A stretch of DNA of 64,000 bases from an uncultured delta proteobacterium (GTDB lineage Bacteria; Desulfobacterota; Binatia; Binatales; Binataceae): positions 2,811,103 to 2,875,102 of the forward strand of contig CAWJET010000001.1 of the NCBI GenBank assembly GCA_963842085.1, in the 5' to 3' direction. Made by a program: the position numbers and the translations under genes. The stretch's first letter is position 1, and the number at the start of each line of letters is the position of its first letter. Under the pieces are notes generated by a model, which saw only the letters and a list, made by a program, of their open reading frames with translations, made no database searches and was not told the origin of the DNA. Positions 2,984-29,467 of this stretch are shown here, piece after piece.

Positions 2984-3076
2984 GAGGCTGAATATTGGGC
3001 TTTTGTGCGACATCGAGCGATACGGCTCGTTTAAGGGGGAACCGGTAAAATCTCCCCGCGGGGAGGTTGGACTACA

Positions 3077-3322
3077 ATGGCGTCCTCAATGGCATCCTCG
3101 GAAGAAATCCTCACCATCTCGGAGTTGTCGGAGCATCTGCGCGTCCATCCGACTACGATTTACCGGTTGCTCCGCGAAGGACGAATACCCGGCTTCCGCG
3201 TCGGCAGCGCGTGGCGATTCAGCCGTGCGGCGATCGAAATATGGGAGCACGGGCAAATCGATCCAATCGACGAAGATTCCGCGCGCACGCGCAAAGCCAA
3301 AGGCCGCAAGCCTCGCAAGTAG
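3077..3322 (+). CDS. Excisionase-family/MerR-type helix-turn-helix DNA-binding protein (HTH_17)
   Basis: An 81-aa protein with the motif ILTISELSEHLRVHPTTIYRLLREGRIPGFRVGSAWRF, typical of Xis/AlpA-like HTH, and a basic tail. Confidence 0.7.
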   Translation: MASSMASSEEILTISELSEHLRVHPTTIYRLLREGRIPGFRVGSAWRFSRAAIEIWEHGQIDPIDEDSARTRKAKGRKPRK

Positions 3323-3369
3323 CCCGCGCAGTATTCACGGCGCGCTTGTTTTTCTGTCATTCTCGACAG

Positions 3370-4185
3370 GTGGACTCCAACGAAGGCGAGCCCGCGCGGC
3401 ATCGCCCACATTCACAAATAGCAGCGTACTTCGTCCGTTTAGCCGACACTTACGGTGACGGCGCATACTACGGAAATCGGCGGCGCGCAGTGCTCGAGTC
3501 GATCGCGGGCGAAGTGGCGCAGGCGCGCGACGTGCTCGACGTCGGATGCGGCAACGGCGCGTATCTCGCGAACTTTGCGCAGGTGCCTGGAAATCGCCGG
3601 GTGACCGGCGCCGACATGTCAATCGACATGCTGTTGTCAGCGCGCAATCGGGTCGGTGCGAAATGCCGCCTGCTCCGCGCGGACGCGTCGCGACTGCCGT
3701 TCAAGCCGGAGTCGTTCGATTTGGTCTTCGCGAGCCACGTGCTTCAGTTCGTTGCCGATACCGATCTCGATGGCGTCGTGGCGGAGATCGCGCGATGCCT
3801 GCAGCATCCCGGGGTGCTAATCGCGACCGGGCAGCGTGACGACAGCGTTCGGCAGATGCTGAGCGCGATCGTCGGGCCGGAGCGCTGGCGCGAATATCGC
3901 GAGGTAATCTTCCGGCGCGCGCCGCGCCGCGAAGCCGATGCGCGTCCCAAGGATCGCTACCAGCAGGCGTTCGCCAAGGCCGGTCTGCGCGTCGAGGAAC
4001 GTGCCGCGCGGTTTACGGTCACGTGGCCGGATATCGCAGAGTGGATCCGGCTCAGATGGATCGCACTGATCCCCGACGCCGAGCGTGATCGGGCCGATGC
4101 GATGCTGGTGGAACTCGCGAAGGCGGGTGCGCCGCGGAGTTTGACCCTGCACGAGCCGCTGATCCTCGGCCGGCGGGATAGCTGA
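3370..4185 (+). CDS. Class I SAM-dependent methyltransferase (start codon uncertain, GTG at 3370 proposed)
   Basis: Motif I VLDVGCGNGAYL and the downstream methyltransferase fold motifs are present. The upstream part of the ORF-track frame overlaps the HTH gene in another frame and is Arg-rich, so it was trimmed. Confidence 0.65.
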   Translation: MDSNEGEPARHRPHSQIAAYFVRLADTYGDGAYYGNRRRAVLESIAGEVAQARDVLDVGCGNGAYLANFAQVPGNRRVTGADMSIDMLLSARNRVGAKCRLLRADASRLPFKPESFDLVFASHVLQFVADTDLDGVVAEIARCLQHPGVLIATGQRDDSVRQMLSAIVGPERWREYREVIFRRAPRREADARPKDRYQQAFAKAGLRVEERAARFTVTWPDIAEWIRLRWIALIPDAERDRADAMLVELAKAGAPRSLTLHEPLILGRRDS

Positions 4186-4241: not shown

Positions 4242-5084
4242 ATGGCGGAGAGTTTCGCGCCGATGCCAACGCAAACGAAATACACCGAGGTTAAGGGATA
4301 CGCGACTTACTATTACTACAGCGGCGCGACGACGCTGCCGGACGTGGTGCCGGACTTCTCGCGCGGCCGCAAAATTTTGTTCGTCCACGGCGCGGGCTCG
4401 AACGGCCACACGTGGCATCGGCAGATCGACGCGTTCGGCGGCAAGCACAGTCCGATCGCGCTCGACCTGCCCGGGCATGGCCGTTCGGCGGGCGTCGAGG
4501 GGCTGCGCACGGTTCACGACTACGCCGATTTCGTCGCCGCGTTTCTCGATGCGCTGAAGATCAAGTCGGCGGTGATACTGGGGCACTCGATGGGCGGCGC
4601 GATCGCGATGGATCTCGCGCTGCGGCATGCCGCGCGCGTCGAGGCCCTGATTCTCAGTTGCACGGCGGCGAAGTTTAACCTCACGCCCGATCGAATCGAG
4701 GCGCTGCGGGCGATCACGATGGGCCGTGCGCCGCAGGCCTTCAACACCGACGGCTACTCGCCCAAGACGGTGAAAGAAAACTTCGACGTCGTGCGCGAAG
4801 GCTGGATGGAGCAAATCAAGACCGACCCGCGCGTGCGCTATACCGACATCCTGGCGTGCTCGCAGGTCGATTTGCGCGACGCAATCGCGAAAATCGACAA
4901 GCCGGCGCTGGTGCTCGCGGGCGCCGACGACAAGGGCACCACGCCGACCGACGCGGAGTTTATCGCGGGCAAAATTCGCGGCGCGACCGCCAGGATTATC
5001 GCGGACGCCGGCCATCTCATCCCGCGCGAGCGTCCCGCCGAGTACAACGCCGCCATCGAACAGTTCATCACCGGACTGAAGTAG
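4242..5084 (+). CDS. Alpha/beta-fold hydrolase
   Basis: Contains an HGAGSNGHTW oxyanion region and a GHSMGG nucleophile elbow. TTGACA (4198-4203) followed by TAATAC forms a promoter-like pair upstream. Confidence 0.8.
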   Translation: MAESFAPMPTQTKYTEVKGYATYYYYSGATTLPDVVPDFSRGRKILFVHGAGSNGHTWHRQIDAFGGKHSPIALDLPGHGRSAGVEGLRTVHDYADFVAAFLDALKIKSAVILGHSMGGAIAMDLALRHAARVEALILSCTAAKFNLTPDRIEALRAITMGRAPQAFNTDGYSPKTVKENFDVVREGWMEQIKTDPRVRYTDILACSQVDLRDAIAKIDKPALVLAGADDKGTTPTDAEFIAGKIRGATARIIADAGHLIPRERPAEYNAAIEQFITGLK

Positions 5085-5093
5085 GAATTCGAG

Positions 5094-6257
5094 ATGAGTT
5101 TAAGCCGCAAGACCGCAGTCGCCGGAGTATTCGAGCATCCCACCCGCTTCGCGCCGGACAAAAGCCTGTTTCAGATAATGGCGGAGAGCGTGCGTGGCGC
5201 GCTGGACGACGCCGGCTTGACGATCAAGGACGTGAACGGGTTGTGCACGACCGGAATCGGCTTGAGTGGGATGGGAATCGTCGGCTTCTGCGACTACCTG
5301 AACCTGACGCCGAACTTCGTTGACTCGACTTCTATAGGCGGGTCGTCGTTCGTCGCGCACACCGCTCACGCCGCCGCCGCGATCCACGCCGGGATGTGCG
5401 ATGTATGCCTCGTGGTCTATGGCTCGACGGCGGCCTCGTCGCGGTTCGCGATTGGCACGGGCGGCGGGGGCGGCGGCGGAGGCGATCCGTGCGACCAGTA
5501 CGAGATTCCGTTCGGCCCGACTACGGTTGGGTCGTACGCGATGGTCGCGCAGCGGCATATGCATGACTACGGCACGACCTCCGAGCAGCTCGCCGAGATA
5601 GCAGTCACGATGCGGCTGCATGCGTCGATGAATCCGGCCGCGAAGTATCGCGACCCGATCACGGTGGAAGATGTGCTCGCGTCGCGAATCATCTCGTCGC
5701 CGCTGCATCTGCTCGATTGCTGCATCATCAGCGACGGCGGTGGCGCGCTGGTGATCACCTCGGCGGAGCGGGCACGCGACCTGAAGAAGAAGCCGGTCTA
5801 CATCCTCGGCACAGGCGAGACGGTGCGGCACGCGGCGCGTGGGCAGCGCGACTTTCTGGAGATCGCGGCGGCGCAATCGGGGCGGCTGGCGTTCGAGCGC
5901 GCGGGCGTAGCGCACAAAGACATCGACATGGCGATGATCTACGACTCGTTTACGATCACCGTGCTGTCCACGCTGGAGAATCTCGGCTTCTGCAAGCGCG
6001 GCGAGGGCGGGACGTTCGTGTCGGGCGGGCGGCTGCGCTTCGACGGCGAGTTTCCGATCAACACCGACGGCGGCGGTCTGTCGTCGAACCATCCAGGGAT
6101 GCGCGGAATCTTCCTGGTGATCGAGGCGACCAGGCAACTGCGCGGCGAATGCGGGCCGCGGCAGGTCAAGGACTGCAAAATCGCGCTCGCGCACGGCACC
6201 GGCGGCACGCTCGGCACCCGGCATTCGGGCGCGACGCTTATCCTCAGCAATCAGTAA
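5094..6257 (+). CDS. Thiolase-fold protein of the SCP-x/Ltp2-like type, lacking the N-terminal nucleophile cysteine (putative retro-aldolase)
   Basis: Thiolase C-terminal motifs are present (NTDGGGLS, HGTGG). At the position where thiolases carry C(A/S)SG the sequence reads SIGGSS, and there is a Gly9 run. Confidence 0.7.
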   Translation: MSLSRKTAVAGVFEHPTRFAPDKSLFQIMAESVRGALDDAGLTIKDVNGLCTTGIGLSGMGIVGFCDYLNLTPNFVDSTSIGGSSFVAHTAHAAAAIHAGMCDVCLVVYGSTAASSRFAIGTGGGGGGGGDPCDQYEIPFGPTTVGSYAMVAQRHMHDYGTTSEQLAEIAVTMRLHASMNPAAKYRDPITVEDVLASRIISSPLHLLDCCIISDGGGALVITSAERARDLKKKPVYILGTGETVRHAARGQRDFLEIAAAQSGRLAFERAGVAHKDIDMAMIYDSFTITVLSTLENLGFCKRGEGGTFVSGGRLRFDGEFPINTDGGGLSSNHPGMRGIFLVIEATRQLRGECGPRQVKDCKIALAHGTGGTLGTRHSGATLILSNQ

Positions 6258-6278
6258 CTCGAGGGCGGACGAAAAATC

Positions 6279-6707
6279 ATGGCGGAACAGACCCCAGCGA
6301 AGAAATACTCGAAGCCACTACCGCATCTCGACGAAGAAAACCGCCCCTGGTGGGAGGCTCTTCAGCGGCACGAACTGTACATCCAGAAATGCCGCAAGTG
6401 CGGCGACGTTCGCTACTATCCGCGCGCGTTATGCACCAACTGCCTGTCGTCGGATACGCAATGGATCAAGTGCAGCGGGCGCGGCAAGCTCTATACCTTC
6501 ACCACGACCTATCAGAACCAGGCGCCGGGCTTTCGCGAATCGCTGCCTTACATCATGGCCTATGTCGAATTGGACGAGGGCGTGAAAATGCTCACGAACA
6601 TTGTCGACTGCGCGCCGGATCAGGTTAAAATAGGCATGCCTGTCGAGGTCGTATACGAGGATGTCACGCCCGCGGTGACGCTCGCGAAATTTCGCCCGGC
6701 GAGGTGA
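6279..6707 (+). CDS. DUF35 zinc-ribbon plus OB-fold protein (partner of SCP-x-type thiolases)
   Basis: A four-cysteine ribbon (CRKCGDVRYYPRALCTNC) is followed by an OB-fold region. It sits 22 bp after the thiolase-fold gene. Confidence 0.75.
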   Translation: MAEQTPAKKYSKPLPHLDEENRPWWEALQRHELYIQKCRKCGDVRYYPRALCTNCLSSDTQWIKCSGRGKLYTFTTTYQNQAPGFRESLPYIMAYVELDEGVKMLTNIVDCAPDQVKIGMPVEVVYEDVTPAVTLAKFRPAR

Positions 6708-6720
6708 GGGCTCAATCCTG

Positions 6721-7404
6721 GTGAGTACAATCCTTGATCTGCACTCGCATAGCGAAGCATCGGAAGACAGCCGCGCACCGGTAGAGGCGTACCTCAACTG
6801 GATCAAGCTGCGTGCGACCGAGCGGCCGGTCGACGGAATCGTCTTGACCGAGCATCGCCAGTTCAATCGCGACGCCGACTACCGCGCGCTCGAGGACAAG
6901 TTCGGCACACTCGTGCTGCGCGCGTCGGAAGTCGAGACCAACTACGGACACATGCTGGTGTTCGGCGTGAACGACGACATGGTCAAGCGATTCGATTTTG
7001 CCGACGTGCGGCTCGACGCGCAGACACTGATCAACGAAGTGGCGCGGATGGGCGGAATCGTCGTCCCGTGTCATCCGGGGCGCCCCAATATCGGGCTCTA
7101 CGAGCATTACCAGAGCAAAGGGCCCCTGGAGAATGTAGTCGCGGTCGAGGCGCTGAACGGCGGATCGCGCAAAGGCGAGGACGAGCGCAGCGCGGAACTG
7201 ATCGCGAAGTACGGGTTTGCCGCGACCGGCGGCTCCGACAGCCACCTGGTCAGCCTGATCGGACTGTGCGCGACGAAGTTCAGCGCCGACATCAAGACGA
7301 TCGACGACCTGGTGCGGGAATTGAAAACCCGCAACTACGAACCGGTCGATTTCCGGCCGCGGCGCAAAGCCGTGCCGCACGCGGTCGCGATGGAAACCAG
7401 GTAA
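6721..7404 (+). CDS. PHP-domain metal-dependent phosphoesterase
   Basis: An N-terminal DLHSHS motif and later His/Asp motifs (TEH, GSDSH) are typical of the PHP family. The gene starts with GTG. Confidence 0.65.
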   Translation: MSTILDLHSHSEASEDSRAPVEAYLNWIKLRATERPVDGIVLTEHRQFNRDADYRALEDKFGTLVLRASEVETNYGHMLVFGVNDDMVKRFDFADVRLDAQTLINEVARMGGIVVPCHPGRPNIGLYEHYQSKGPLENVVAVEALNGGSRKGEDERSAELIAKYGFAATGGSDSHLVSLIGLCATKFSADIKTIDDLVRELKTRNYEPVDFRPRRKAVPHAVAMETR

Positions 7405-7420
7405 TAGCGAGACGATAACG

Positions 7421-7867
7421 ATGGCAGTCGATTACGATCCAGCCCTGATCAACAAGGTCTTCGAAGTGACCGAGCCCGTCGAGGTCAAGGCCGACAAGAT
7501 CAAACGGTACTGCGCGGCGCTTGGCGAGACCAATCCGATCTACACGGACGAGGAAGCGGCGAAGAAGGGGCCGTACGGGGGAATCGTCGCACCGCCGTCG
7601 TTCGCGGTCACGTTTCGCAACGGGCGGCATTTCTTCGAGAACGTGCCGCGCTTCGGACGCCGCGGTTTCGACGCCGGCAAGGACGTCGAGTTCGTGTCGC
7701 CGATAAGGCCGGGCGACAAGGTGACGCTGAGCTCGCACGTGAAGGAAATTTACGAGAAGACCGGACGGACCGGCACGATGGTGTTCGTCGTAATCCGCTC
7801 GACGCTGAAGAACCAGAAGGACGAAGTGCTGGCCCATATCGACCATCGCTTCATGAACCGCACTTGA
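7421..7867 (+). CDS. MaoC-like hot-dog fold protein (N-terminal half of a split hydratase)
   Basis: Hot-dog fold sequence. There is a 4-nt ATGA overlap with the next gene. Confidence 0.7.
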   Translation: MAVDYDPALINKVFEVTEPVEVKADKIKRYCAALGETNPIYTDEEAAKKGPYGGIVAPPSFAVTFRNGRHFFENVPRFGRRGFDAGKDVEFVSPIRPGDKVTLSSHVKEIYEKTGRTGTMVFVVIRSTLKNQKDEVLAHIDHRFMNRT

Positions 7868-8283
7868 ACAGTTTCGAAGAGATCAAGATCGGCGACACGC
7901 TCGGCCCGCTCGAGCTGTTCGTGAGCAAGGATCAGTGCCGCGCGTACGCGAAAACGATGGGCATGGGCGAGGGCGCGGGCCGCTTCACCGACGACGAAGC
8001 GGCGAAGAAAGAAGGGCTGCCCGGGATGATCATTCCGGGCAACATGAGCCTGGGCCTGCTCTCGAAGCTGGTGACGGATTGGATCGGGTCGAACAACGCG
8101 TGGCTGACGCAGATGAGCACGACCTACCGGGTGCCGGTGCAGCCCGATCACACGATCACGATTCACGGCTTTATCACCAACAAGAATCCCGCAGCTCGCA
8201 CCGCCGAGATCGACGTGTGGATAGAGAACGAGGAAGCGGAGCGCCTCGTCACCGGGACCGCAACCGTCGAGTTCAGAAAGTAG
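7864..8283 (+). CDS. MaoC-family (R)-specific enoyl-CoA hydratase
   Basis: MaoC dehydratase motifs are present (DDEAAKKEGLPGMIIPGNMSLGLLS). It is translationally coupled to the preceding hot-dog gene. Confidence 0.75.
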   Translation: MNSFEEIKIGDTLGPLELFVSKDQCRAYAKTMGMGEGAGRFTDDEAAKKEGLPGMIIPGNMSLGLLSKLVTDWIGSNNAWLTQMSTTYRVPVQPDHTITIHGFITNKNPAARTAEIDVWIENEEAERLVTGTATVEFRK

Positions 8284-8593: not shown

Positions 8594-8715
8594 CGGTTCA
8601 CCTTTCTCGACTGGGAACGTCTGTCGGGACCGGCGCGGAGGACTCGGACACGATCACAACTATTAGTGTGCCTGCGAGGACGCAAGCAGGAATTTGCGGC
8701 GAGGGGGGAATTGAT

Positions 8716-9068
8716 TTTAGGGAATTTAACTTTCCGCAGACGAAGCGATCCGCTCTAGAGCCAGAATCAACGGCGGCAAGTCGTGGCTGACGATCTGCCA
8801 TAGGATTTCGAAGTCCACCGAGTCGTAGCCGTGAATCAGCCGGTTGCGCAGTCCTACAATCTGGGCCCACGGTATGTCGCTGAGTGCGCTCGTCCAGCGG
8901 CGTCCTGCTCGCAGCTTCTCCTACGATTTCCAACAATCGGACAAGGGCGAGGTTCAGCATGCGATTGGTGCGGAGATCGTCGCGCGTCTTCCCCTTCGCC
9001 ATCGCAACCGCTTCGCGCGCGTGATCGAGCATGTGCCGAAGTCGCACCACGCTTTCATCGTGCGACAT
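8716..9068 (-). pseudogene. hepT: HepT-family (DUF86) RNase toxin, disrupted by a frameshift
   Basis: The N-terminal half (MLDHAREAVAMAKGKTRDDLRTNRMLNLALVRLLEIVGEAA) is in one frame. The conserved C-terminal half (DIPWAQIVGLRNRLIHGYDSVDFEILWQIVSHDLPPL...ES*) is in the -1 frame. The tracked ORF 8598-9068 runs on as low-complexity read-through. Confidence 0.6.
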
Positions 9069-9357
9069 ATTGGACCTCGGCGTCGGCGAGAACTCGGTCG
9101 CGGAAGTGTCTGCTCAAAAATTCGGGAGTGTTAAGGTCGACGGTCCGACCCAAAATACCCGACAATTCGTCCTGCATCGCGAAGAAGTCCAAGCCGGGAA
9201 CGTGTCCGGACTCGAATTCCACGATCACGTCCACGTCGCTATCTGGGAGAAAATCGTCGCGCAGAACCGAGCCAAAGAGCGCGAGCCTGCGGATGTGGTG
9301 GCGTCGGCAGAAACTGCGAACCCGTTCCGCAGGTACGTCAATTTTCGCGCGTCCCAT
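9055..9357 (-). CDS. mntA: MntA-type minimal nucleotidyltransferase antitoxin
   Basis: Carries the GSxxRxxxxxxSDxDxxV nucleotidyltransferase motif (LFGSVLRDDFLPDSDVDVIVEF). It overlaps the HepT start by 14 nt. Confidence 0.7.
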   Translation of the reverse strand: MGRAKIDVPAERVRSFCRRHHIRRLALFGSVLRDDFLPDSDVDVIVEFESGHVPGLDFFAMQDELSGILGRTVDLNTPEFLSRHFRDRVLADAEVQYVAR

Positions 9358-9454
9358 CTCCAATATCCCGCGCTGAAGGCAGATTAACTCGCTTAAATCT
9401 CCCAAACACATGCTATCGATTTCGACTACTGATCGCTATCGAAGAAGTGAAACT

Positions 9455-11949: not shown

Positions 11950-13185
11950 CTAACCGAGTGTCCCCGAGACTTTGAGACGCGCGATCTCGTCCCAGGTCAG
12001 GCCCATTTCGAGCGCAACTTCCTCGGTATGCTGGCCGAGTTCGGGCGCGGCGCGATGCGGTTGCAAAGGGGTGTCGCCAAACTCGACAGGGCTGTTCACG
12101 ACGCGGCATCCAGGAATGTTCGGATGGTCAACAGGCGCGAAAGCGCCGATGGCGGCGGCCTGGGGATCGTCGAGCACTTCGGCGTCGGTGCGGACGGGCG
12201 CCCAGACGAGATTGTAGCGGTCGAAAATCGGCGCCCACTCGTCGGAGGTTCGCGCGGCAACGGCGCGATCGATCTCGCCGGTGAGCGCGGCGCAGTTTTG
12301 CACGCGAGCGGTCGAGTCCTTGAAGCGCGGATCGTCGAGCCACTCCGGTTTGCCGAGCGCGCGGCAGAAATCCGGCCAGTGCCGATCGCTCTGGATCATC
12401 ACGAAGTAAATCCATCGCGCGTCGGCGCATCGATAGGAACTCCACAGCGGATTCACTCGCTGCGTGCGCGACTCGGATTGGGGCGAGCGGCCGGTCATGA
12501 GGCCGACGGTGAGATCGGACGCGTTCATCCAGAGGCCCATCGAGAACAGCGAGATGTTGACCTCGCGGCCGCGGCCGGTGCGCTCGCGCGCGAGCAGCGC
12601 GGCAGAGATTGCGCCCGCAAGGCCGAGGCCGACGGCGTGATCGATCATCGCGGGACGCTGCGCGGGCGGCGACTGTCCGGGCTCGGCGATCGTCGCCATC
12701 AGGCCGGAACGCGCCCACGCGGCGGCGTAGTCGTAGGCGGAGCGATTGCGGTCGGGGCCGCGATGCCCATAGCCGTTGATCGACGCATAGACGAGGCGAG
12801 GATTCTTCGCGGATAGAGTTGCGTAGTCGAGTTTCATCCGCTCGATGGCGTCGAGGCGCAGGCTGGTGACGAAGACGTCGGCGTGTTCGATGAGCTTGAG
12901 CGCGAAGCTGTGGCCGTCTGCCGTGCGCAAGTCGACGGCGACGGAGCGTTTGTTGCGATTGTCGAGCTCGAACGGCGGACGGATGCGGGCGTTGGGGTCG
13001 CCCATCGTGCGCGTGACAAAGCCGCGAATCGGATCGCCGGCAGTAGGGTCTTCGAGCTTGATGACATCGGCGCCCCAGTCGCCGAGCACGGCGGTGGTGG
13101 ACGGGCCGGCGACCCACATCGCAACTTCGACGACCCTGACGCCCTGCAGCGGACGCTCCATCGCATCGGTCTCCTTCGCCTGCAT
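11950..13185 (-). CDS. CoA-transferase family III (CaiB/BaiF)
   Basis: N-terminal motif GVRVVEVAMWVAGPSTTAVLGDWGADVIKLE and family-III length. Confidence 0.85.
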   Translation of the reverse strand: MQAKETDAMERPLQGVRVVEVAMWVAGPSTTAVLGDWGADVIKLEDPTAGDPIRGFVTRTMGDPNARIRPPFELDNRNKRSVAVDLRTADGHSFALKLIEHADVFVTSLRLDAIERMKLDYATLSAKNPRLVYASINGYGHRGPDRNRSAYDYAAAWARSGLMATIAEPGQSPPAQRPAMIDHAVGLGLAGAISAALLARERTGRGREVNISLFSMGLWMNASDLTVGLMTGRSPQSESRTQRVNPLWSSYRCADARWIYFVMIQSDRHWPDFCRALGKPEWLDDPRFKDSTARVQNCAALTGEIDRAVAARTSDEWAPIFDRYNLVWAPVRTDAEVLDDPQAAAIGAFAPVDHPNIPGCRVVNSPVEFGDTPLQPHRAAPELGQHTEEVALEMGLTWDEIARLKVSGTLG

Positions 13186-19599: not shown

Positions 19600-22551
19600 G
19601 TGAGGAATCAGATGCGCGAGGGACCGTCGATTTCCAGGCGATCATTCATCAAGCTGGCCGCAACTGCGGGCGCGGCGGCGGCGATCCCTGGCTGCGAGCC
19701 GGCCGCGCGCAAGCTGATCCCATACGTGGTGCCCGATGAGAACGTAGTCCCCGGGGTCCCGAGTTTTTTTGCGACGACGTGTGCGGAGTGCCCGGCGGGA
19801 TGCGGCGTGGTGGCGCGAATCCGGGAAGGGCGGGTCGTCAAACTCGAGGGAAACCCCGCCGATCCGATCGGCCAAGGCACGTTGTGCGCGCGGGGGCAGG
19901 CGGCGCTGCAAGGCTTGTACAATCCGGACCGCCTGGCGCATCCGCAAATTCGCGGCGACAACGGCGCGCTGCGGACCGTGTCGTGGGACGAAGCGGAGAA
20001 AATGCTTGGTGACCGGCTGGCGGCGGCGTCGAAGGCGGGCAAGGATCGCGTCGCCTTCTTCGGTTCGCCGCATGGCCCGACTTTCAGGAAGATCGCACTT
20101 GCGGTGGTGGGCGCTTACGGTTCATCGCGCGCGATATTTTACGAGGCGGTCAATAATGAACCGGCGCGGGTCGCGGCGAAGACCCTCTTTGGCCGGCGCG
20201 ATCTGCCGGCCTATCGAATCGATCAGGCCGAAGTGCTGATTTCGTTCGGTGCGGATTTCCTCGAGACCTGGCAATCGCCGGTGGAACTGGCGCGCCAGTA
20301 CGCGCTGTTCCGCGCGCCGCAGAAGCGGCGCGGCACGCTGACTATCGGCCGCGCGACCTACGTTGGCCCGCGGCTCAGCATGACGGCGTCCAAGTGCGAC
20401 GACTGGATCGCGACGGCTCCGGGGGTGCAGGCCGACGTTGCGTGGAGTGTGCTCAACGTCCTGGTCAAGCAGCGTTGGATTTCGCAGAACTCGGGCTTCG
20501 ATCTCGACGCGCTGACCAGGGCGGTCGCGAATTTCGATCCGGCCGCCACCAGCACACGAACCGGCGTGCCGGTCGAGACTATTACCCGGCTGGGCGAGAT
20601 GTTCGGCAAGGCGGACGGCGCATTGGCGATTGCGGGCACCGACGATTCGTCGGCTCATCTGGCGGCGATGATCCTCAATGCGGTCACCGGCAACTTTGGC
20701 AGGACCGTAATGTTTTTCGAAGGCTCGCCGGCCGAAGAGACCAGCACGCCGGACGACGTGGACGCGGTGGTTGACGCGATGCGCGACGGCAATATCGATG
20801 TGGCATTGGTCGCGGGCGGGAATCCGGTCTTCACGATGCCGCCGTCGGCGCGAATGGCCGAAGCGCTACAGAAAGTTCCATTCGTCGTGTGGGCGGGAGG
20901 CGTGCCGGACGAGACTGCGGCGATGGCGAATCTCATTTTGCCGGCGCATCATCCGCTCGAATCATGGCGCGACACTGCGCCGCGCGCGGGAATCCGGGGG
21001 CTGGGTCAGCCGGTGATGCAGCCGGTGTTCGAGAGCAAGGCGGTCGGCGACATCCTGCTGGCGGCGGCGGCGAAATCGTTGAGCGCGAAGCTTCCGTGGG
21101 CGACTACGGCGGAAGCGGTCAAAGCTGAGTGGCTCGCGTTGGCTCCCAAAGCGGACAAGGCGGATCCCGAAGATTTCTGGGTGAAGGTGCGGCGCGAAGG
21201 CGGCCTGTTCGAGGAACAGCATCTTTCGGCGCTCAGCCTCGACACGTCTGCGTTCAAGGCGCCGGTGCCGACGGCGGCCCAGTCCGAACTTTCCGTTTAC
21301 GCCTACCCGCACATCTTCCTTTACGACGGGCGCGGCGCGGACAAGCCGTGGCTGCAGGAATTGCCCGAGCCGGTCACCCAGATCGTGTGGGACAGCTGGG
21401 CCGAGATCCATCCGGAGACCGCGCGCCAGCTCGGCGTCGCCAAGGACGACATTATCGAGATCAAAACGGAGCACGGCGCGATCGAGGCGCCGGTGCTGGT
21501 CGAGAGCACGGTGCGTCCCGGCGTGATCGCGGTTCCGCTCGGGCAGGGGCATCGCGCGTACGGCCGCTATGCAAAAGACGTCGGCGCAAATGCGTGGGCG
21601 ATAATGGCGGAGGGTGCGACCTATGCCGCCGCGACCGCGCGCGCGACCGGCAAGACGCGCACGCTCGTTTCGCCGCTCGGCAAGAGCGAGATGATGGGCC
21701 GTTCGATCATCGAGGCGATGAGTATCGAGCAGTTGGCGAACGGGGTGGTTCCCAAGAGCGAGGCGCAAGAGGTTACCGGGCCGTTCGAAATGTACCCGCG
21801 GTGGAAATATCCCACGCACAAGTGGGGCATGACCATCGACGTCAATGCGTGCACCGGTTGCAGCGCGTGCGTGACCGCGTGCTACGCGGAGAACAATGTT
21901 CCGTTTGTGGGCAAGCAAGGGGTTGATAACGGCCGAATCATGTCGTGGATCCGCATCGAGCGTTATTTCCCGGACGAAAAGGGCGCGGCGGAAGCGCCGC
22001 AACTCTACCTAGCGCCGATGCTGTGCCAGCAGTGCAATCACGCGCCGTGCGAGCCGGTCTGCCCGGTGTTCGCGTCGTATCACACCCGGGAAGGCCTCAA
22101 TGGCCAGATTTACAATCGATGCGTCGGTACGCGCTATTGCGAAAACAACTGTCCGTACAAGGTGCGCCGATTCAACTGGTTCGTGCCGGAGTGGCCCGCG
22201 CCGCTCAACCTGCAACTCAATCCCGACGTGACGGTGCGCGGCGCCGGGGTGATGGAGAAATGCACGTTCTGCATCCAGCGCATTCAGTTCGGCGAGCTCA
22301 ACGCGAAGACCGAGGATCGCCAGTTGCGCGACGGCGAGATCCTGACCGCGTGCCAGCAGACCTGCCCGACACGGGCAATCACGTTCGGCGACAGCGACGA
22401 TCCCGGCAGCGCAATGATGCGCCGGCGCGACGACAACAAGCTGCGCACCTATCGCGCGCTGGAAGAACTCAACACGCAACCGGCGATCACGTATCTGCGC
22501 TCTCTATCGCGAGAAAGGAAAGGCCTGAAGTGGCGGCGGCGCCGAAGGTAA
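19600..22551 (+). CDS. actB: Alternative complex III subunit ActB (molybdopterin-oxidoreductase-like domain fused to 4Fe-4S ferredoxin domain)
   Basis: A Tat signal (SRRSFIKLAATAGAAAA) and a molybdopterin-fold N-domain are followed by C-terminal poly-Cys ferredoxin motifs (CTGCSACVTAC, CQQCNHAPCEPVCP, CENNCPYK, CTFC). Confidence 0.85.
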   Translation: MRNQMREGPSISRRSFIKLAATAGAAAAIPGCEPAARKLIPYVVPDENVVPGVPSFFATTCAECPAGCGVVARIREGRVVKLEGNPADPIGQGTLCARGQAALQGLYNPDRLAHPQIRGDNGALRTVSWDEAEKMLGDRLAAASKAGKDRVAFFGSPHGPTFRKIALAVVGAYGSSRAIFYEAVNNEPARVAAKTLFGRRDLPAYRIDQAEVLISFGADFLETWQSPVELARQYALFRAPQKRRGTLTIGRATYVGPRLSMTASKCDDWIATAPGVQADVAWSVLNVLVKQRWISQNSGFDLDALTRAVANFDPAATSTRTGVPVETITRLGEMFGKADGALAIAGTDDSSAHLAAMILNAVTGNFGRTVMFFEGSPAEETSTPDDVDAVVDAMRDGNIDVALVAGGNPVFTMPPSARMAEALQKVPFVVWAGGVPDETAAMANLILPAHHPLESWRDTAPRAGIRGLGQPVMQPVFESKAVGDILLAAAAKSLSAKLPWATTAEAVKAEWLALAPKADKADPEDFWVKVRREGGLFEEQHLSALSLDTSAFKAPVPTAAQSELSVYAYPHIFLYDGRGADKPWLQELPEPVTQIVWDSWAEIHPETARQLGVAKDDIIEIKTEHGAIEAPVLVESTVRPGVIAVPLGQGHRAYGRYAKDVGANAWAIMAEGATYAAATARATGKTRTLVSPLGKSEMMGRSIIEAMSIEQLANGVVPKSEAQEVTGPFEMYPRWKYPTHKWGMTIDVNACTGCSACVTACYAENNVPFVGKQGVDNGRIMSWIRIERYFPDEKGAAEAPQLYLAPMLCQQCNHAPCEPVCPVFASYHTREGLNGQIYNRCVGTRYCENNCPYKVRRFNWFVPEWPAPLNLQLNPDVTVRGAGVMEKCTFCIQRIQFGELNAKTEDRQLRDGEILTACQQTCPTRAITFGDSDDPGSAMMRRRDDNKLRTYRALEELNTQPAITYLRSLSRERKGLKWRRRRR

Positions 22552-24403: not shown

Positions 24404-25624
24404 ATGAGCACTAATCTTCAACCGGCGCATCGCGAGCGCGCAGAGACGAAGCCGCGGCCGGTGGAGTCGGTGGCCGGCGCGACAATGCAGACAGTCGCGG
24501 CCGCGATGATCGCGCTGGGTGCGATCGCGTTTGCGTTGGCGCTGACGCGGGGCGGCGCCGCTGTCGCATGGGAAGCCTATCTCGTCAACTTGCTGTTCTT
24601 CCTCGGCGTCGCGCAGGGTGCGCTGGTCGCATCCGCGGCGTTCTACCTGACGCAGGCGAAGTGGGGCGGTTCGACGCCGTATCGGCTCGGCGAGGCGTTC
24701 GCGCCATTTCTGTGGGTCGGATTTTTTCTGTTTTTTGGATTGTACTTCGGCCGCAGCCTGATTTTTCCGTGGGTGACGCATCCGATTCCGCAGAAGGCCG
24801 CGTGGCTGAACACTCCGTTTCTCTTCGCGCGCGATGGAATCGGGCTCGGCGCCATGGCTGCGGCGAGCTTCGCGTTTGTCCGCGTCTCGCGTGGCGATGA
24901 CGCACGGGCGTGGACGACTGCGACCGCCGACATCGAGTTGCCGCCGCATTCGATACGGGTGCTCGCTCCGCTGGTCGCGGTCCTGTTCGCGGTGGTCTAC
25001 TCGCTGATCGCATTCGATCTGGTCATGTCGCTCGCGCCGGTGTGGCGCAGCACACTTTTCGGCTGGTACTTTTTCGCCGGCGCATTCTGGAGCGGATTGA
25101 CCGCGATGGCTCTCACAGCGGTCGTGTTGCGCGGCCGCCTGGGCGAGAACAACCTGTTCACCAATCCCGTCGTCATGCACGACTTCGGCAAGATGGTCTT
25201 CGCGTTCTCCGTGTTCTGGATATACCTGATGTTCGCGCAGTACATCGTGATCTGGTACGGCGACATCCCGGTCGAAACTTTCTTCATCGTTCAGCGGGTA
25301 CATCATATGCCGTGGTCGCCGCTATCGGTGGCGTGCCTGGTGCTGATCTGGCTGATTCCGTTTACCGTGCTGATGAGCGTGCGGGCCAAGAAGGCGCCGG
25401 CGATTCTCGGCACAGTGGCCGGGCTGGGGCTGGTCGGGATGTGGCTCGAGCGTTACGTGCTGGTGGTGCCGTCGCTGTCGCTCGACGCGATCCCGTTTGG
25501 GCCGACGCAATTTCTGATCACGCTTGGTTTTTTGGGCGCATTTCTCATTTCGGCAGTGCCGGGACTGAACCGCGTCGCGCAGGCCGCGACCTCGGGCGAA
25601 CCCGTCGGAGATGATCCGGAATGA
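24404..25624 (+). CDS. actF: Alternative complex III subunit ActF (second NrfD-like membrane subunit)
   Basis: A 406-aa polytopic protein paralogous in architecture to ActC. No monoheme ActE gene lies between actD and actF. Confidence 0.7.
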   Translation: MSTNLQPAHRERAETKPRPVESVAGATMQTVAAAMIALGAIAFALALTRGGAAVAWEAYLVNLLFFLGVAQGALVASAAFYLTQAKWGGSTPYRLGEAFAPFLWVGFFLFFGLYFGRSLIFPWVTHPIPQKAAWLNTPFLFARDGIGLGAMAAASFAFVRVSRGDDARAWTTATADIELPPHSIRVLAPLVAVLFAVVYSLIAFDLVMSLAPVWRSTLFGWYFFAGAFWSGLTAMALTAVVLRGRLGENNLFTNPVVMHDFGKMVFAFSVFWIYLMFAQYIVIWYGDIPVETFFIVQRVHHMPWSPLSVACLVLIWLIPFTVLMSVRAKKAPAILGTVAGLGLVGMWLERYVLVVPSLSLDAIPFGPTQFLITLGFLGAFLISAVPGLNRVAQAATSGEPVGDDPE

Positions 25625-26649
25625 TCCGGCGCGGTTCAAACAAGTATTCGATCGCCTCAGTAGCTATGCGAGTGGCTATTGCACTGACTATTGCGGGATG
25701 CTCGGCGACGGACCGTCCGATGACAACGCTGGCGCCGAAATCGGACCTGGCGCAGTGGATTCACAGTCTCTTCATAGATGTGACGATCTGGGACGGGATC
25801 ATCCTGGCGATCGTGGTCGCCGCATTCATCCTCGCGGTGTTCGTCTTTTCTTCTCGCGTAGGCGAAGCGGCGCCACCCTCGACCGCGTCGTCCGACCTCG
25901 GCCTGGAAATAGCGTGGACGGTGGGCCCCGCGCTGGTGTTGTTGATGATCTCGGTGCCGACGATACGGACGATCTTTCGCTCGCAGCCGGCGGTTGCGCC
26001 TGCTGGAGCGCTGGAGATCAAAGTAGTCGCGCATCAATGGTGGTGGGAGTTCGACTATCCGGACGGCGTGAAGACCGGTAACGAACTGCATATCGCCGTC
26101 AACCGGCCGATTCGCCTGTCACTGGAATCGGCCGACATCATCCACAGCTTCTGGGTGCCGCAACTGGGCGGCAAACGCGACGTGGTGCCGGGCCAAATCA
26201 ATGAGCTGACATTCGTCGCGACGGTAACCGGAATGTATCCGGGGCAATGTGCCGAGTTTTGCGGCCTGTCGCATGCGAACATGCGCTTTCGAGTGTTCGT
26301 CGATTCGCCGGAAGGGTTCGCGATGTGGGACAAGGCGCAACTTGCCGGCCCGGTCGCGCCACCGGCGAGCGATCAGTTGGCGTCGGACGGCGCGAAGATT
26401 TTCGCCGACAGTCCGTGCACGACCTGCCACATGATCAAGGGCGTCTCGAAGGGATATATCGGCCCTGACCTGACGCATTTCGGCAGCCGCACAACGCTGG
26501 CCGCCGGAGTGCTGAAGAACACGCCCGAGAACGTCGCCCAGTGGATCCAGGATCCGCAGGAAATCAAGCCGGGCGCGAATATGCCGGCGCTGCTGTTGCC
26601 AGGGCCAAAGATGAACGCCCTGGTCGCGTATCTCGAGAGTCTCAAATAG
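25621..26649 (+). CDS. coxB: Cytochrome c oxidase subunit II fused to a C-terminal cytochrome c domain (caa3-type)
   Basis: A CuA site (HSFWVPQLGGKRD, CAEFCGLSHANM) and a C-terminal CTTCH heme c motif are present. The ATG overlaps the actF stop. Confidence 0.9.
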   Translation: MIRRGSNKYSIASVAMRVAIALTIAGCSATDRPMTTLAPKSDLAQWIHSLFIDVTIWDGIILAIVVAAFILAVFVFSSRVGEAAPPSTASSDLGLEIAWTVGPALVLLMISVPTIRTIFRSQPAVAPAGALEIKVVAHQWWWEFDYPDGVKTGNELHIAVNRPIRLSLESADIIHSFWVPQLGGKRDVVPGQINELTFVATVTGMYPGQCAEFCGLSHANMRFRVFVDSPEGFAMWDKAQLAGPVAPPASDQLASDGAKIFADSPCTTCHMIKGVSKGYIGPDLTHFGSRTTLAAGVLKNTPENVAQWIQDPQEIKPGANMPALLLPGPKMNALVAYLESLK

Positions 26650-26659
26650 GGAGCGTCCA

Positions 26660-29134: not shown

Positions 29135-29460
29135 GCGAGATTGCAGATACCCACGGCGGGCAGGTTCATCATCCCGGCGCGGCGACGTATCTGATCATCG
29201 CCGCGTTCCTGGTGGTGTTGACGGCGATGGAGGTCACCGTGTTCTACCTGCACGCACTGCGTCCCGTGCTGGTGCCGGTATTGATCGTTCTGGCCGCGGC
29301 CAAGTTCGCATTGGTCGCGATGTTCTATATGCACTTGAAGTACGACGGATGGCTGCTGACGGGCGTGTTCATCTTCCCGCTGATGATGGCGACGCTCCTG
29401 CTGATCTCGCTGATCCTGCTCTTCGCGTATTTGTTGCATCACATGGCGCCGATCGGATAG
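29131..29460 (+). CDS. coxD: Cytochrome c oxidase subunit IV (prokaryotic small subunit)
   Basis: A 109-aa three-TM protein. The ATG overlaps the coxA stop (ATGA). It is hidden in the ORF track inside a 910-aa wrong-frame ORF. Confidence 0.65.
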   Translation: MSEIADTHGGQVHHPGAATYLIIAAFLVVLTAMEVTVFYLHALRPVLVPVLIVLAAAKFALVAMFYMHLKYDGWLLTGVFIFPLMMATLLLISLILLFAYLLHHMAPIG

Positions 29461-29467
29461 GGCAGTT

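Follow-up and report, generated by a model that had tools for sequence, protein, structure and literature searches.

A conserved six-gene module of Binatia that joins a thiolase-fold protein lacking catalytic cysteines to a PHP-family metallohydrolase and a hot-dog pair

Related systems

ChsH1-ChsH2-Ltp2 (M. tuberculosis and Thermomonospora curvata; 6OK1) is a steroid C3 side-chain hydratase-aldolase, and Shy-Sal (Comamonas testosteroni; 9MYR) is its bile-acid C5 side-chain counterpart. A Tyr is the catalytic base in both aldolases, Ltp2 and Sal, and the C304S variant of Sal is inactive (PMC12329534). Ltp2 carries this Tyr in a YDHF motif and uses Tyr344 as catalytic acid, whereas the essential Cys304 of Sal lies in YDCY. 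Shy is a homodimeric, dyad-containing MaoC fused to DUF35, the zinc site of which is Cys3His. In the steroid system the dyad is supplied by ChsH1, and the non-catalytic ChsH2 has a His-to-Tyr change (PMC11321319). DUF35 has been described as a scaffold that connects dimers of thiolase-fold proteins with hot-dog proteins or with other enzymes (PMC12329534, PMC11321319, and an archaeal FAS preprint). Archaeal DUF35 complexes include thiolase/HMG-CoA synthase/DUF35 and the KT/DUF35/ACR/MaoC-HCD fatty-acid synthase of Sulfolobus.

Further parallels come from outside these assemblies. The mycobacterial (3R)-hydroxyacyl-ACP dehydratases HadAB and HadBC are two-gene hot-dog heterodimers encoded by overlapping genes. 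Itaconate degradation by Ict-Ich-Ccl combines a family III CoA-transferase, a MaoC hydratase and an HpcH/CitE-type lyase. Finally, the uncharacterised 'thiolase' 4U4E of Sphaerobacter thermophilus is encoded beside a DUF35 gene in a beta-oxidation-like cluster, with a PimC/D-like acyl-CoA dehydrogenase pair, a dyad-bearing MaoC, an ADP-forming acyl-CoA ligase, two SDRs and an embedded metal phosphoesterase gene of the Metallophos family.

Gene order and conservation of the Binatia module

Within a window of 64,000 nucleotides (the whole stretch of DNA analysed) from an uncultured member of the Binatia, a class of uncultured bacteria from soil, five co-directional plus-strand ORFs are packed at 5094-8283. 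These encode a thiolase-fold protein without catalytic cysteines (THL, 5094-6257, 387 aa), a stand-alone zinc-ribbon and OB-fold protein (DUF35, 6279-6707, 142 aa), a short PHP-family metallohydrolase (PHP, 6721-7404, 227 aa), a HadA/ChsH2-like hot-dog subunit (MaoA, 7421-7867, 148 aa) and a HadB-like hot-dog subunit (MaoB, 7864-8283, 139 aa). ORF calls and Pfam matches agree with an earlier note on this DNA, which had described the same five tightly packed genes. Its gaps of 22, 14, 17 and -4 nt need a small correction, the last being right and the first three each one too high (21, 13, 16 and -4 nt); the negative value reflects the TTG start of MaoB, which overlaps the MaoA stop by 4 nt. GC3 of the five ORFs is high (0.75-0.86), and no plus-strand terminators occur inside the module. 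The note had left the plus-strand alpha/beta-hydrolase gene (ABH, 4242-5084, 280 aa) out of the cassette. Because ABH lies 9 nt upstream of THL and keeps its place as consistently as the remaining genes (syntenic in 73 of 80 Binatia loci), the conserved unit is six genes, of which ABH is the first.

Among 80 species-level Binatia genomes, the order ABH-THL-DUF35-PHP-MaoA-MaoB is retained on the same strand in 70, down to 63% PHP identity; seven more fit this order as far as their truncated contigs reach, and three have only PHP and the two hot-dog genes. As order and strand recur to this extent, the arrangement exceeds chance. The genes flanking the module differ between genomes, all of the contexts being from uncultured organisms, and the surroundings are housekeeping genes. 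The neighbours named earlier are located as claimed, namely an enoyl-CoA hydratase (ECH_1; 2034-2840/2918, minus strand), the alpha/beta hydrolase and a CaiB-type CoA-transferase (CoA_transf_3; 11950-13185, minus strand), although the ECH and CaiB genes do not stay with the module across the Binatia loci. No steroid-catabolic genes occur within 10 kb on either side of the module in the 80 genomes. In one sub-clade, co-directional TolC-like, MlaC, MMPL and 2-aminoethylphosphonate genes lie downstream (12-17 of 80 loci, depending on the gene), and in distant Binatia, Ppd and an AEP aminotransferase (above its cut-off) are found downstream. The PEP-mutase motif EDKxxxxxNS is absent from every locus and from the window.

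Catalytic residues and the PHP-MaoA-MaoB trio

Profile searches of the kind proposed earlier returned thiolase, DUF35, PHP and MaoC-type Pfam matches. THL matches Thiolase_C_1 (186 bits) and, in NCBIfam, PRK06158 (432 bits, exceeding the cut-off of 421). Against PDB sequences its closest solved relative is 4U4E (6e-114, 52% identity), followed at a distance by CtSal 9MYR (1e-64) and TcLtp2 6OK1 (8e-53). The motif SIGGSS spans residues 80-85, and Gly83 stands at the nucleophile position, as judged by the conserved distance of 17 residues from there to where the next helix ends, and by its alignment with Gly89 of CtSal (reference position from PMC12329534). The nucleophilic Cys is thus lost, as had been claimed, and so is the acid/base Cys, Y283-D-S285-F standing where thiolases have HDCF. 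With both catalytic cysteines gone, THL cannot carry out thiolysis. It does retain Tyr283, the counterpart of the aldolase Tyr. The proposed match to an Ltp2-type aldolase nevertheless breaks down at the second catalytic residue, as Ser285 aligns with Cys304 of Sal and the thiolase-type His333 (NHPG) occupies the position of Tyr344 of Ltp2. Across 78 Binatia orthologues, Gly83, YDSF and NHPG show conservation of 98% or more, and the GGSSF, YDSF and HPG motifs are common to THL and 4U4E. A poly-Gly run occupies THL residues 123-130.

The DUF35 protein (zf-ChsH2 and OB_ChsH2_C, 52 and 90 bits) has a Cys4 site (Cys38, Cys41, Cys52 and Cys55) and shares 47% identity with the DUF35 neighbour of 4U4E in Sphaerobacter. 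By analogy with the bile-acid and archaeal complexes (PMC12329534; archaeal FAS preprint), it presumably serves as the scaffold for the THL dimer. As in the archaeal complexes, a stand-alone DUF35 would link the thiolase-fold dimer with MaoC-type hot-dog proteins acting on CoA esters; the archaeal thiolases, in contrast, retain their catalytic cysteines and perform Claisen condensation, the MaoC dehydratase there is active, and PHP is lacking. ABH (Abhydrolase_6/_1) has a nucleophile elbow, GHS116MG, and His258, and is of the esterase or enol-lactonase type. Its best NCBIfam match is PcaD (149 bits, under the cut-off) and its best PDB sequence matches are the esterases 5EGN and 5FRD.

MaoA (FAS1_DH_region/MaoC, 96 and 36 bits) and MaoB (MaoC_dehydratas, 32 bits) find HadA and HadB, respectively, as best matches in NCBIfam and PDB, all scores being far under the family cut-offs. 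The Cys4 DUF35 protein and this HadA/HadB-style pair following THL bear out the parallel in layout to ChsH1-ChsH2(DUF35)-Ltp2. The earlier note's interpretation of the pair as a split MaoC hydratase does not hold, as the His/Asp dyad was found in the alignments of neither subunit. MaoA has Tyr at the catalytic His position (G-E36-T-N-P-I-Y41), the same change as in ChsH2 (PMC11321319). MaoB, aligned to HadB (Asp36/His41) and to the canonical Sphaerobacter MaoC, has Met/Gly and Phe41 in place of the Asp and His. Both subunits keep basic motifs, K113-T-G-R-T-G in MaoA (also given as K-T-G-R-S/T-G) and G-R40-F41 in MaoB, each invariant, along with a Y/F-R motif in the latter.

PHP (PHP_C, 48 bits) carries the full, conserved nine-ligand trinuclear set (H8, H10, D16, H45, E70, H77, H118, D173 and H175). 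Its best sequence-profile relatives are the pAp phosphatase and RNase AM group, including Cv1693, BAD_1165 and YciV (5e-17 to 3e-11 for BAD_1165, RNase AM and Cv1693), which act on nucleoside 3',5'-bisphosphates. The nearest fold is that of PsfC, an iron oxidase and not a phosphatase. Barrel and metal ligands are common to all of these, although PHP falls about 60 residues short of the pAp phosphatases in length and keeps two ligands that PsfC replaces by profile alignment (Lys at D16, Asn at H77). PHP, furthermore, invariably comes with hot-dog proteins, as a neighbour or in the same chain, a combination not known for Cv1693, BAD_1165, YciV, RNase AM or PsfC.

The PHP gene had been described as an unexpected element in the middle of the cassette. 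It is no insert but a constant partner of the hot-dog pair, syntenic in the Binatia and accompanied by MaoA and MaoB even where the thiolase is missing (L085, L088-L092 and three Binatia loci). The thiolase-free trio recurs in Chloroflexota and another lineage, with only a handful of loci seen outside Binatia, and >100 protein clusters from Dehalococcoidia carry PHP and MaoA as a single fused chain. An AF2 model of a natural fusion (pTM 0.62) has a disordered linker and no fixed domain arrangement. Neighbours of the trio vary. For instance, a split TPP enzyme overlaps PHP by 4 nt in L085, L096 and L097, the one in L085 being phosphonopyruvate/sulfopyruvate-decarboxylase-like; an HpcH/HpaI aldolase-lyase abuts PHP in L086; an ICL/PEP-mutase-family gene is adjacent, on the opposite strand, in L089; and MmgE/PrpD genes also occur. 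No lyase is adjacent in L088, L090 or L091.

Competing explanations and a proposed machine

The membership in steroid or bile-acid C-C cleavage put forward earlier, in which a true ChsH1-ChsH2(DUF35)-Ltp2-type hydratase-aldolase would act on the branched side chains of steroids, bile acids or the like, PHP being an accessory, is very unlikely. The domain set and its order match, as do the nucleophilic-Cys-less thiolase fold with its YDxF Tyr and the hot-dog pair with one His-to-Tyr subunit; Shy-Sal likewise has the nucleophile-position Gly, the Tyr and DUF35-mediated assembly. Against this, MaoB has no equivalent of the ChsH1 dyad, Tyr344 and Cys304 are both missing, DUF35 is unfused to a hot-dog subunit, PHP and ABH are integral, steroid context is lacking throughout the 80 genomes, and THL is far closer to 4U4E than to Ltp2 or Sal. 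A biosynthetic, lipid-related role, that of a DUF35-organised condensation and dehydration unit with an exported product (compare the archaeal CoA-based fatty-acid synthase and HadAB), strikes us as improbable, if less so. Here, the precedent is the Sulfolobus DUF35, which brings together a ketothiolase, a reductase and a MaoC dehydratase (archaeal FAS preprint), and the closeness of the hot-dog pair to HadA and HadB, the downstream export-type genes and the housekeeping surroundings all fit. Loss of the nucleophilic Cys, however, rules out the known acyl-enzyme route of Claisen chemistry, the module has no reductase, the dehydratase dyad is missing, and linkage to the export genes is confined to a single sub-clade. 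The idea that unrelated genes came together by chance, or that PHP was recently inserted, deserves virtually no credence: nothing but the missing literature precedent speaks for it, and it is refuted by the synteny, which persists while the flanks diverge, and by the PHP-MaoA gene fusion in another phylum.

Two readings centre on PHP. The trio alone could be the functional unit, an acyl-CoA- or acyl-carrier-directed phosphoesterase with the dead hot-dog heterodimer as ligand-binding adaptor, in which case the neighbouring C-C lyase would be lineage-specific and act a step before or after. The hot-dog domain of FapR, which binds malonyl-CoA, is a model for such an adaptor. We consider this unlikely but the strongest of the rivals, as the trio is the sole part conserved across phyla, both of its hot-dog subunits are dyad-less yet keep invariant basic motifs, and the adjacent gene varies from THL in Binatia to the TPP, HpcH/HpaI and ICL/PEP-mutase-family genes elsewhere. 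On the other side are the small number of non-Binatia loci, the opposite strand of the L089 gene, the loci without an adjacent lyase, and the searched literature, in which no phosphoesterase with a hot-dog adaptor was found. Alternatively, PHP could be a PsfC-like dinuclear-iron oxygenase, with the module acting on a malate- or citramalate-like (possibly phosphonate) hydroxy-acid or CoA ester. The recurrence of phosphonate and hydroxy-acid genes nearby (the L085 decarboxylase-like enzyme, Ppd with AEP aminotransferase, HpcH/HpaI and MmgE/PrpD) is in its favour, but the PHP family keeps all nine phosphoesterase ligands, two of which PsfC has replaced, and EDKxxxxxNS is absent. The sister cluster, moreover, has a Metallophos enzyme, from a family known only as phosphoesterases. 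This reading is improbable as well, slightly more so than the lipid role.

We tentatively prefer, at somewhat less than even confidence, to view the six-gene operon as encoding one multi-protein machine that acts on a CoA thioester. The conserved order, the varying flanks and the tight or overlapping junctions all support a single machine. The THL dimer, held by the Cys4 DUF35, would perform retro-aldol cleavage or formation of a C-C bond in a 3-hydroxyacyl-CoA, with Tyr283 as the base and His333 acting either as the acid or as an oxyanion partner. The hot-dog proteins and PHP would form a separate, older unit able to exist alone. Since the dyad is lost in both subunits, the hot-dog heterodimer may hydrate with non-canonical residues or merely bind and present the acyl-CoA. 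With its complete trinuclear site, PHP would remove a phosphate, either from the 3'-phospho-ADP moiety of the CoA ester (or from pAp) or from a phosphorylated substrate, and ABH may open an ester or lactone precursor or release the product. The logic of a hot-dog protein coupled to a 3-hydroxyacyl-CoA C-C lyase recalls Ict-Ich-Ccl, as do the CaiB-type transferase nearby in close relatives and the L086 lyase, which takes the place of the thiolase. The likeness does not extend to sequence membership; the Binatia lyase fold is non-homologous, the hot-dog pair is dyad-less, and PHP is present. Several observations count against parts of the scheme: Ser285 replaces the Cys essential in Sal, the nearest fold to PHP is an iron oxidase, and the AF2 fusion model does not favour a fixed PHP-MaoA assembly. 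Without a hydratase dyad, the step feeding an aldolase is unaccounted for. As the trio works without THL in other lineages, the two halves of the machine may act on different substrates.

The sister THL-DUF35 clusters independently support a place for a phosphoesterase in such pathways. The Metallophos enzyme of the Sphaerobacter cluster, which has neither hot-dog heterodimer nor ABH, is non-homologous to PHP, and in a second Chloroflexota cluster the Metallophos and acyl-CoA ligase genes share 4 nt. Most likely, the module encodes a new complex in which a C-C lyase for CoA thioesters is coupled to a phosphoesterase; because the catalytic residues of the steroid side-chain machinery are missing, it is probably an undescribed variant with a substrate other than a steroid.

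Operon structure and conservation across Binatia

Five tightly packed, co-directional ORFs occupy 5094-8283 on the forward strand, as the earlier note had described, and their Pfam domains are those it named. They encode the thiolase-fold protein (THL, 5094-6257; Thiolase_C_1, 186 bits), a DUF35 protein (6279-6707; zf-ChsH2 plus OB_ChsH2_C, the DUF35 architecture, above cut-offs), the PHP protein (6721-7404; PHP_C) and two hot-dog subunits, the HadA-like MaoA (7421-7867; FAS1_DH_region/MaoC) and the HadB-like MaoB (7864-8283; MaoC_dehydratas). GC3 values of 0.75-0.86 are typical of real genes in this genome, which is 62% GC. The gaps between the five genes measure 21, 13, 16 and -4 nt; the last agrees with the note, which had each of the other three one nucleotide too long (22, 14 and 17 nt). 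An alpha/beta hydrolase gene (ABH, 4242-5084) ends only 9 nt ahead of the THL gene, and no forward-strand terminator-like site was found inside 4242-8283 by a promoter and terminator scan that was otherwise uninformative. The components are all small soluble proteins. The locus is present in several MAGs; the organism stands as Candidatus Binatus sp. at NCBI, where the protein names are generic only.

Conservation was examined in a genome scan of one genome per species, queried with a four-sequence PHP alignment, from which the best 80 of 582 places with a PHP relative were kept. All of these best 80 belong to class Binatia, at 63-96% identity. The arrangement ABH-THL-DUF35-PHP-MaoA-MaoB recurs in identical order and strand in 70 of the 80 loci; another seven are compatible with the full module but interrupted by contig ends, and the remaining three (L023, L060 and L062) consist of PHP-MaoA-MaoB alone, with unrelated genes upstream. 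Compared with the window proteins by tblastn, the most divergent copies in these loci have identities of 65% for THL, 63% for PHP, 60% for DUF35, 49% for ABH, 44% for MaoB and 43% for MaoA. Since order and strand are kept across the Binatia loci, chance juxtaposition is ruled out, and so is a recent insertion of the PHP gene; absence of that gene from orthologous clusters, as after a chance insertion, is what the note had named as refuting its reading. All-against-all clustering of flanking ORFs revealed no other gene common to more than 32 of the 80 loci, so the enoyl-CoA hydratase (ECH), methyltransferase, FtsX and CaiB genes are lineage-specific neighbours. At L023 (1787-3532), the usual place of ABH-THL-DUF35 is taken by a 197-aa ORF and the gene of an AAA_21 (AbiEii-like) ATPase, and a Gp49-like gene lies 3' of the trio PHP-MaoA-MaoB, which suggests disruption of this operon by a mobile or defence element.

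Several features of the surroundings were also recorded. A 372-aa ORF at 3067-4185 is probably over-extended; on identical contigs it is split into an 81-aa HTH_17 protein (3077-3322) and a 231-aa class I methyltransferase (3490-4185), the latter having 59-74% identity in close relatives and missing from more distant Binatia. The module is separated from the FtsX gene by a HepT-like/nucleotidyltransferase (MNT) pair of toxin-antitoxin type (8598-9068 and 9055-9411, both reverse strand), whose HepT-like ORF scores slightly under the Pfam cut-off. Both genes are called in the near-identical L002, NTP_transf_2 only in L003, and neither in the matching stretch of L001, which may reflect a variable insertion. 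The module is otherwise surrounded by housekeeping genes, including citrate synthase, IspG, transaldolase, a molybdopterin/Fe-S fusion protein resembling alternative complex III (19600-22551) and a caa3-type cytochrome oxidase cluster (25621-30280; COX2-cytochrome c, COX1-COX3 fusion, CtaG), the last two being respiratory genes of an ordinary kind.

Active-site residues of the thiolase-fold and hot-dog proteins

The closest solved relative of THL is 4U4E, an uncharacterised Sphaerobacter thermophilus 'thiolase' (E 6e-114; 52% identity), followed by the bile-acid aldolase CtSal (9MYR; 1e-64) and then the steroid side-chain aldolase TcLtp2 (6OK1; 8e-53). THL also passes NCBIfam PRK06158 (432 against a cut-off of 421), a model with a generic name only. 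The thiolase Cys stands 17 residues ahead of the Gly that closes the next helix, and the same spacing in THL leads to Gly83, which lines up with CtSal Gly89. The loss of the nucleophilic Cys claimed from the sequence is borne out by this helix spacing and by the alignments with 6OK1 and 9MYR. One HMMER alignment sets Ser80 at the nucleophile position, via a 3-residue gap opened in the helix; we treat Gly83 as the correct assignment, with Ser80, Ser84 and Ser85 kept as a caveat. No aligned catalytic Cys occurs elsewhere in THL, its other ten cysteines lying away from both catalytic positions. The HDCF motif of SCP2-thiolases becomes YDSF in THL (Tyr283, Ser285), YDHF in Ltp2 and YDCY in Sal. 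Examined as an SCP2-type thiolase, THL has the GHP histidine and lacks both the nucleophilic Cys (CxSG) and the HDCF Cys. At the level of sequence, thiolysis by THL is excluded.

In both Ltp2 and Sal, the Tyr of YDxF is the catalytic base; the catalytic acid of Ltp2 is Tyr344, and Cys304 of Sal is essential, the C304S variant being inactive (PMC12329534). The Ltp2 base, Tyr294, has a counterpart in THL Tyr283, but within YDSF, with Ser for His, and the position of Sal Cys304 is Ser285. At the Ltp2 Tyr344 position Sal has Gln and THL has His333, which is the thiolase 'GHP' histidine (N-H333-P-G). Across 78 Binatia orthologues, conservation of these key residues (Gly83, YDSF and NHPG) is 98% or higher. 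Aldolase-type chemistry is plausible for THL on these alignments, with a residue pair (Tyr/His) that would be without precedent among the tested enzymes. Eight to nine consecutive glycines (GTGGGGGGGGD) at residues 122-130 of THL (5457-5483 in the window) fall in the region of CtSal's flexible, substrate-shaping beta4-alpha4 loop; the 4U4E sequence is ordinary there. The neighbouring gene encodes the DUF35 protein, a rubredoxin-like zinc ribbon (Cys38, Cys41, Cys52 and Cys55) plus OB fold, as a separate protein with no hot-dog fusion.

MaoA and MaoB are closest to HadA and HadB, although far under the family cut-offs. By fold and subunit composition they test as a two-subunit hot-dog pair, and their genes overlap by 4 nt. 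MaoC hydratases require a His/Asp dyad, which in ChsH1-ChsH2 is carried by ChsH1 only, ChsH2 having Tyr for His (PMC11321319). The corresponding MaoA motif, G-E36-T-N-P-I-Y41, likewise has Tyr for His (Phe in one orthologue), and that of MaoB, G-R40-F41, has Met/Gly and Phe41, with neither Asp nor His. Because the dyad seen in the reference motifs (GDLNPIH in HadB, GDHQYIH in the Sphaerobacter MaoC) is missing from both subunits, the 'split MaoC hydratase' of the earlier note fails its defining test. Basic motifs are retained, G-R-F and Y/F-R in MaoB and K-T-G-R-S/T-G in MaoA. The pair would have either new catalytic residues or the role of a binding module.

The layout of the module is like that of the DUF35-organised hot-dog/thiolase-fold complexes ChsH1-ChsH2-Ltp2 (PMC11321319), Shy-Sal (PMC12329534) and archaeal FAS (preprint). 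The likeness to ChsH1-ChsH2-Ltp2 drawn in the note thus survives as far as layout is concerned, but does not extend to family membership by the tested catalytic residues. The Ltp2 system has the dyad in one hydratase subunit and DUF35 fused to the other, whereas the module has no dyad and a separate DUF35. A steroid-catabolic neighbourhood was not found at the window, nor was any conserved flank across the 80 loci. With Tyr344, the hydratase dyad, the fused DUF35 and the steroid gene neighbourhood all lacking, a steroid or bile-acid machinery of Ltp2 type is not upheld. Judged by the catalytic residues aligned here, membership of THL and the hot-dog pair in the Ltp2, Sal, thiolase and MaoC-hydratase families fails.

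The PHP protein and its hot-dog partners outside Binatia

In an alignment of 24 sequences (30-90% identity), nine PHP residues either never vary or reach at least 90% conservation: H8, H10, D16, H45, E70, H77, H118, D173 and H175. We take them to be the nine-ligand trinuclear set known from PHP enzymes such as histidinol-phosphate phosphatase. AF2 models the protein with confidence (pLDDT 93), and fold searches confirm the PHP fold. No match to the PDB was found by phmmer, and relatives were reached by profile and fold searches. The top sequence-profile matches are BAD_1165, RNase AM and Cv1693 (5e-17 to 3e-11), a group that hydrolyses nucleoside 3',5'-bisphosphates; the fold searches place EndoQ, TM0559 and 3E38 ahead of these three. 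Since such relatives cleave 3',5'-bisphosphates and CoA contains a 3'-phospho-ADP moiety, CoA 3'-phosphate and pAp are still reasonable as putative substrates. The best fold match is PsfC, which uses a dinuclear non-heme iron site to convert 2-phosphonomethylmalate. In the profile alignment, D16 and H77 of PHP stand opposite Lys and Asn of PsfC. PHP is unlikely to be a PsfC-type dinuclear iron oxygenase; it does not have the reduced ligand set, and the PepM motif is in no locus.

PHP relatives outside the best 80 (39-49% identity) were sampled one by one, with L086, L087 and L098 on contigs too short to inform. At E<=1e-30 the whole sequence library contains 29 clusters of PHP relatives, rising to 377 at E<=1e-10, and a metagenome scan with P0121 returned two loci only, L096 and L097. 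At L085, a split TPP enzyme overlaps PHP by 4 nt and is followed by MaoA-like and MaoB-like genes, an arrangement retained in L096 and L097 at 77% identity. The TPP enzyme resembles the alpha and beta subunits of sulfopyruvate/phosphonopyruvate decarboxylase, at scores under the family cut-offs. In Dehalococcoidia/Chloroflexota, PHP and MaoA are fused into a single protein of ~400 aa, followed by a MaoB-like gene; over 100 protein clusters contain the fusion (down to 50% identity), and unfused forms also occur. No thiolase-fold or DUF35 gene lies within 8 kb of the examined trio loci of this group. An AF2 model of a natural fusion has two confident domains and a disordered linker (pTM 0.62), and because it predicts no defined interface it is no evidence for a rigid complex; the domains are predicted to be tethered without rigid contact. 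In L086 (43% identity), a HpcH/HpaI aldolase/lyase gene (1-600) abuts PHP and a MaoA-like N-terminus is next, and in L098 (39% identity) PHP is followed by a MmgE/PrpD dehydratase-family gene (1161-1526). Both hint at a general link between the PHP subfamily and lyase/dehydratase chemistry on hydroxy-acids or acyl-CoAs. P0138 (40% identity) has no hot-dog neighbour, which implies that the association is specific to the PHP subfamily of the module. The PHP-hot-dog trio is an older unit than the full module. Two Dehalococcoidia loci, L088 (708-10183) and L091 (241-9676), have the trio beside MenD, MenH, MenB, MenA and MenC, with MenE and a third MaoC-like ORF in L088 as well; neither stretch showed a separate gene for a DHNA-CoA thioesterase.

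A proposed phosphoester step and competing explanations

In Sphaerobacter thermophilus (CP001823.1; L093, 175-10574), 4U4E is encoded, together with a DUF35 protein 47% identical to that of the window, at the end of an uncharacterised, beta-oxidation-like co-directional cluster, which is also represented by L095 (786-11671). The solved 'thiolase' lacks both catalytic cysteines. The cluster further comprises two PimC/D-like acyl-CoA dehydrogenases, a canonical MaoC, an ADP-forming acyl-CoA ligase, a Metallophos protein (PF00149), two long SDRs and DinB. The gene set is identical in a second Chloroflexota genome, where the Metallophos gene overlaps the ligase gene by 4 nt. The presence of non-homologous metal phosphoesterases in two related clusters is the best argument for a phosphoester hydrolysis step in THL/DUF35/hot-dog pathways and for PHP being a hydrolase.

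Other roles are suggested by particular neighbours. In L057 (11643-19305), in L063, L068 and L069 and in ~12-17 distant Binatia loci, genes for a TolC-like OEP, MlaC and an MMPL transporter follow directly 3' of the module on the same strand, along with a split phosphonopyruvate decarboxylase (alpha and beta), a 2-aminoethylphosphonate aminotransferase (376 bits against an NCBIfam cut-off of 361) and, in some, a nucleotidyltransferase. The region may be a phosphonate-decorated lipid export locus, and these downstream genes, limited to one sub-clade, are what motivates a lipid or phosphonate role for the module. The phosphonate link is a minor rival, since the PEP-mutase motif was found in no locus examined and no PEP mutase is within reach of the L057-type loci. 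A menaquinone role, suggested by the men genes beside the trio in the two Dehalococcoidia loci, was rejected as a general explanation: other trio loci are without them, and the ECH and ABH of the window do not score as MenB or MenH. A biotin role, prompted by BirA beside the trio in L085 and by weak BioC and BioH matches, was rejected as well: the scores are far under cut-offs, the methyltransferase is no conserved companion of the module, and 'pimeloyl-ACP methyl ester carboxylesterase', the name given by JGI, is a label that COG applies generically.

We tentatively favor a two-halved model, which we hold to be somewhat short of probable, in which a CoA-thioester C-C lyase complex is combined with an autonomous PHP-hot-dog phosphoesterase unit. 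THL-DUF35, with its Tyr/His pair, would form the lyase complex acting on a CoA thioester, the PHP-hot-dog unit would supply the phosphoesterase step, and the esterase-like ABH would act at pathway entry or exit. A more specific and rather unlikely proposal is that the trio is an undescribed unit, a trinuclear PHP phosphoesterase whose acyl-CoA-binding arm is a dyad-less hot-dog heterodimer, and that this unit plugs into interchangeable C-C lyases (THL/DUF35 in Binatia, a split TPP enzyme or HpcH/HpaI elsewhere), the Binatia THL being a third (Tyr/His) type of aldolase. Such a unit might, for instance, remove the 3'-phosphate from a specific acyl-CoA, or a phosphate from the acyl group.

Searches for PHP with MaoC, for DUF35 with MaoC and a thiolase-like protein, and for Binatota with thiolase returned nothing relevant in the searchable library. 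To our knowledge, steroid side-chain degradation is the only setting from which aldolases derived from thiolases are known, and they use one of two catalytic pairs, Tyr/Tyr (Ltp2) or Tyr/Cys (Sal). The THL clade, which includes the solved structure 4U4E, would add a third pair and would do so outside steroid metabolism. That PHP is obligatorily paired, and in one phylum fused, with dyad-less hot-dog proteins is without precedent in the searchable literature; taken with the non-homologous phosphoesterase of the sister cluster, it points to a CoA-thioester pathway with a phosphate-removing step that has gone unrecognised. Binatia, an uncultured lineage abundant in soil, carry the operon as a core feature, and the trio has a wide distribution in Dehalococcoidia, so the reaction of this module is probably common in the environment.
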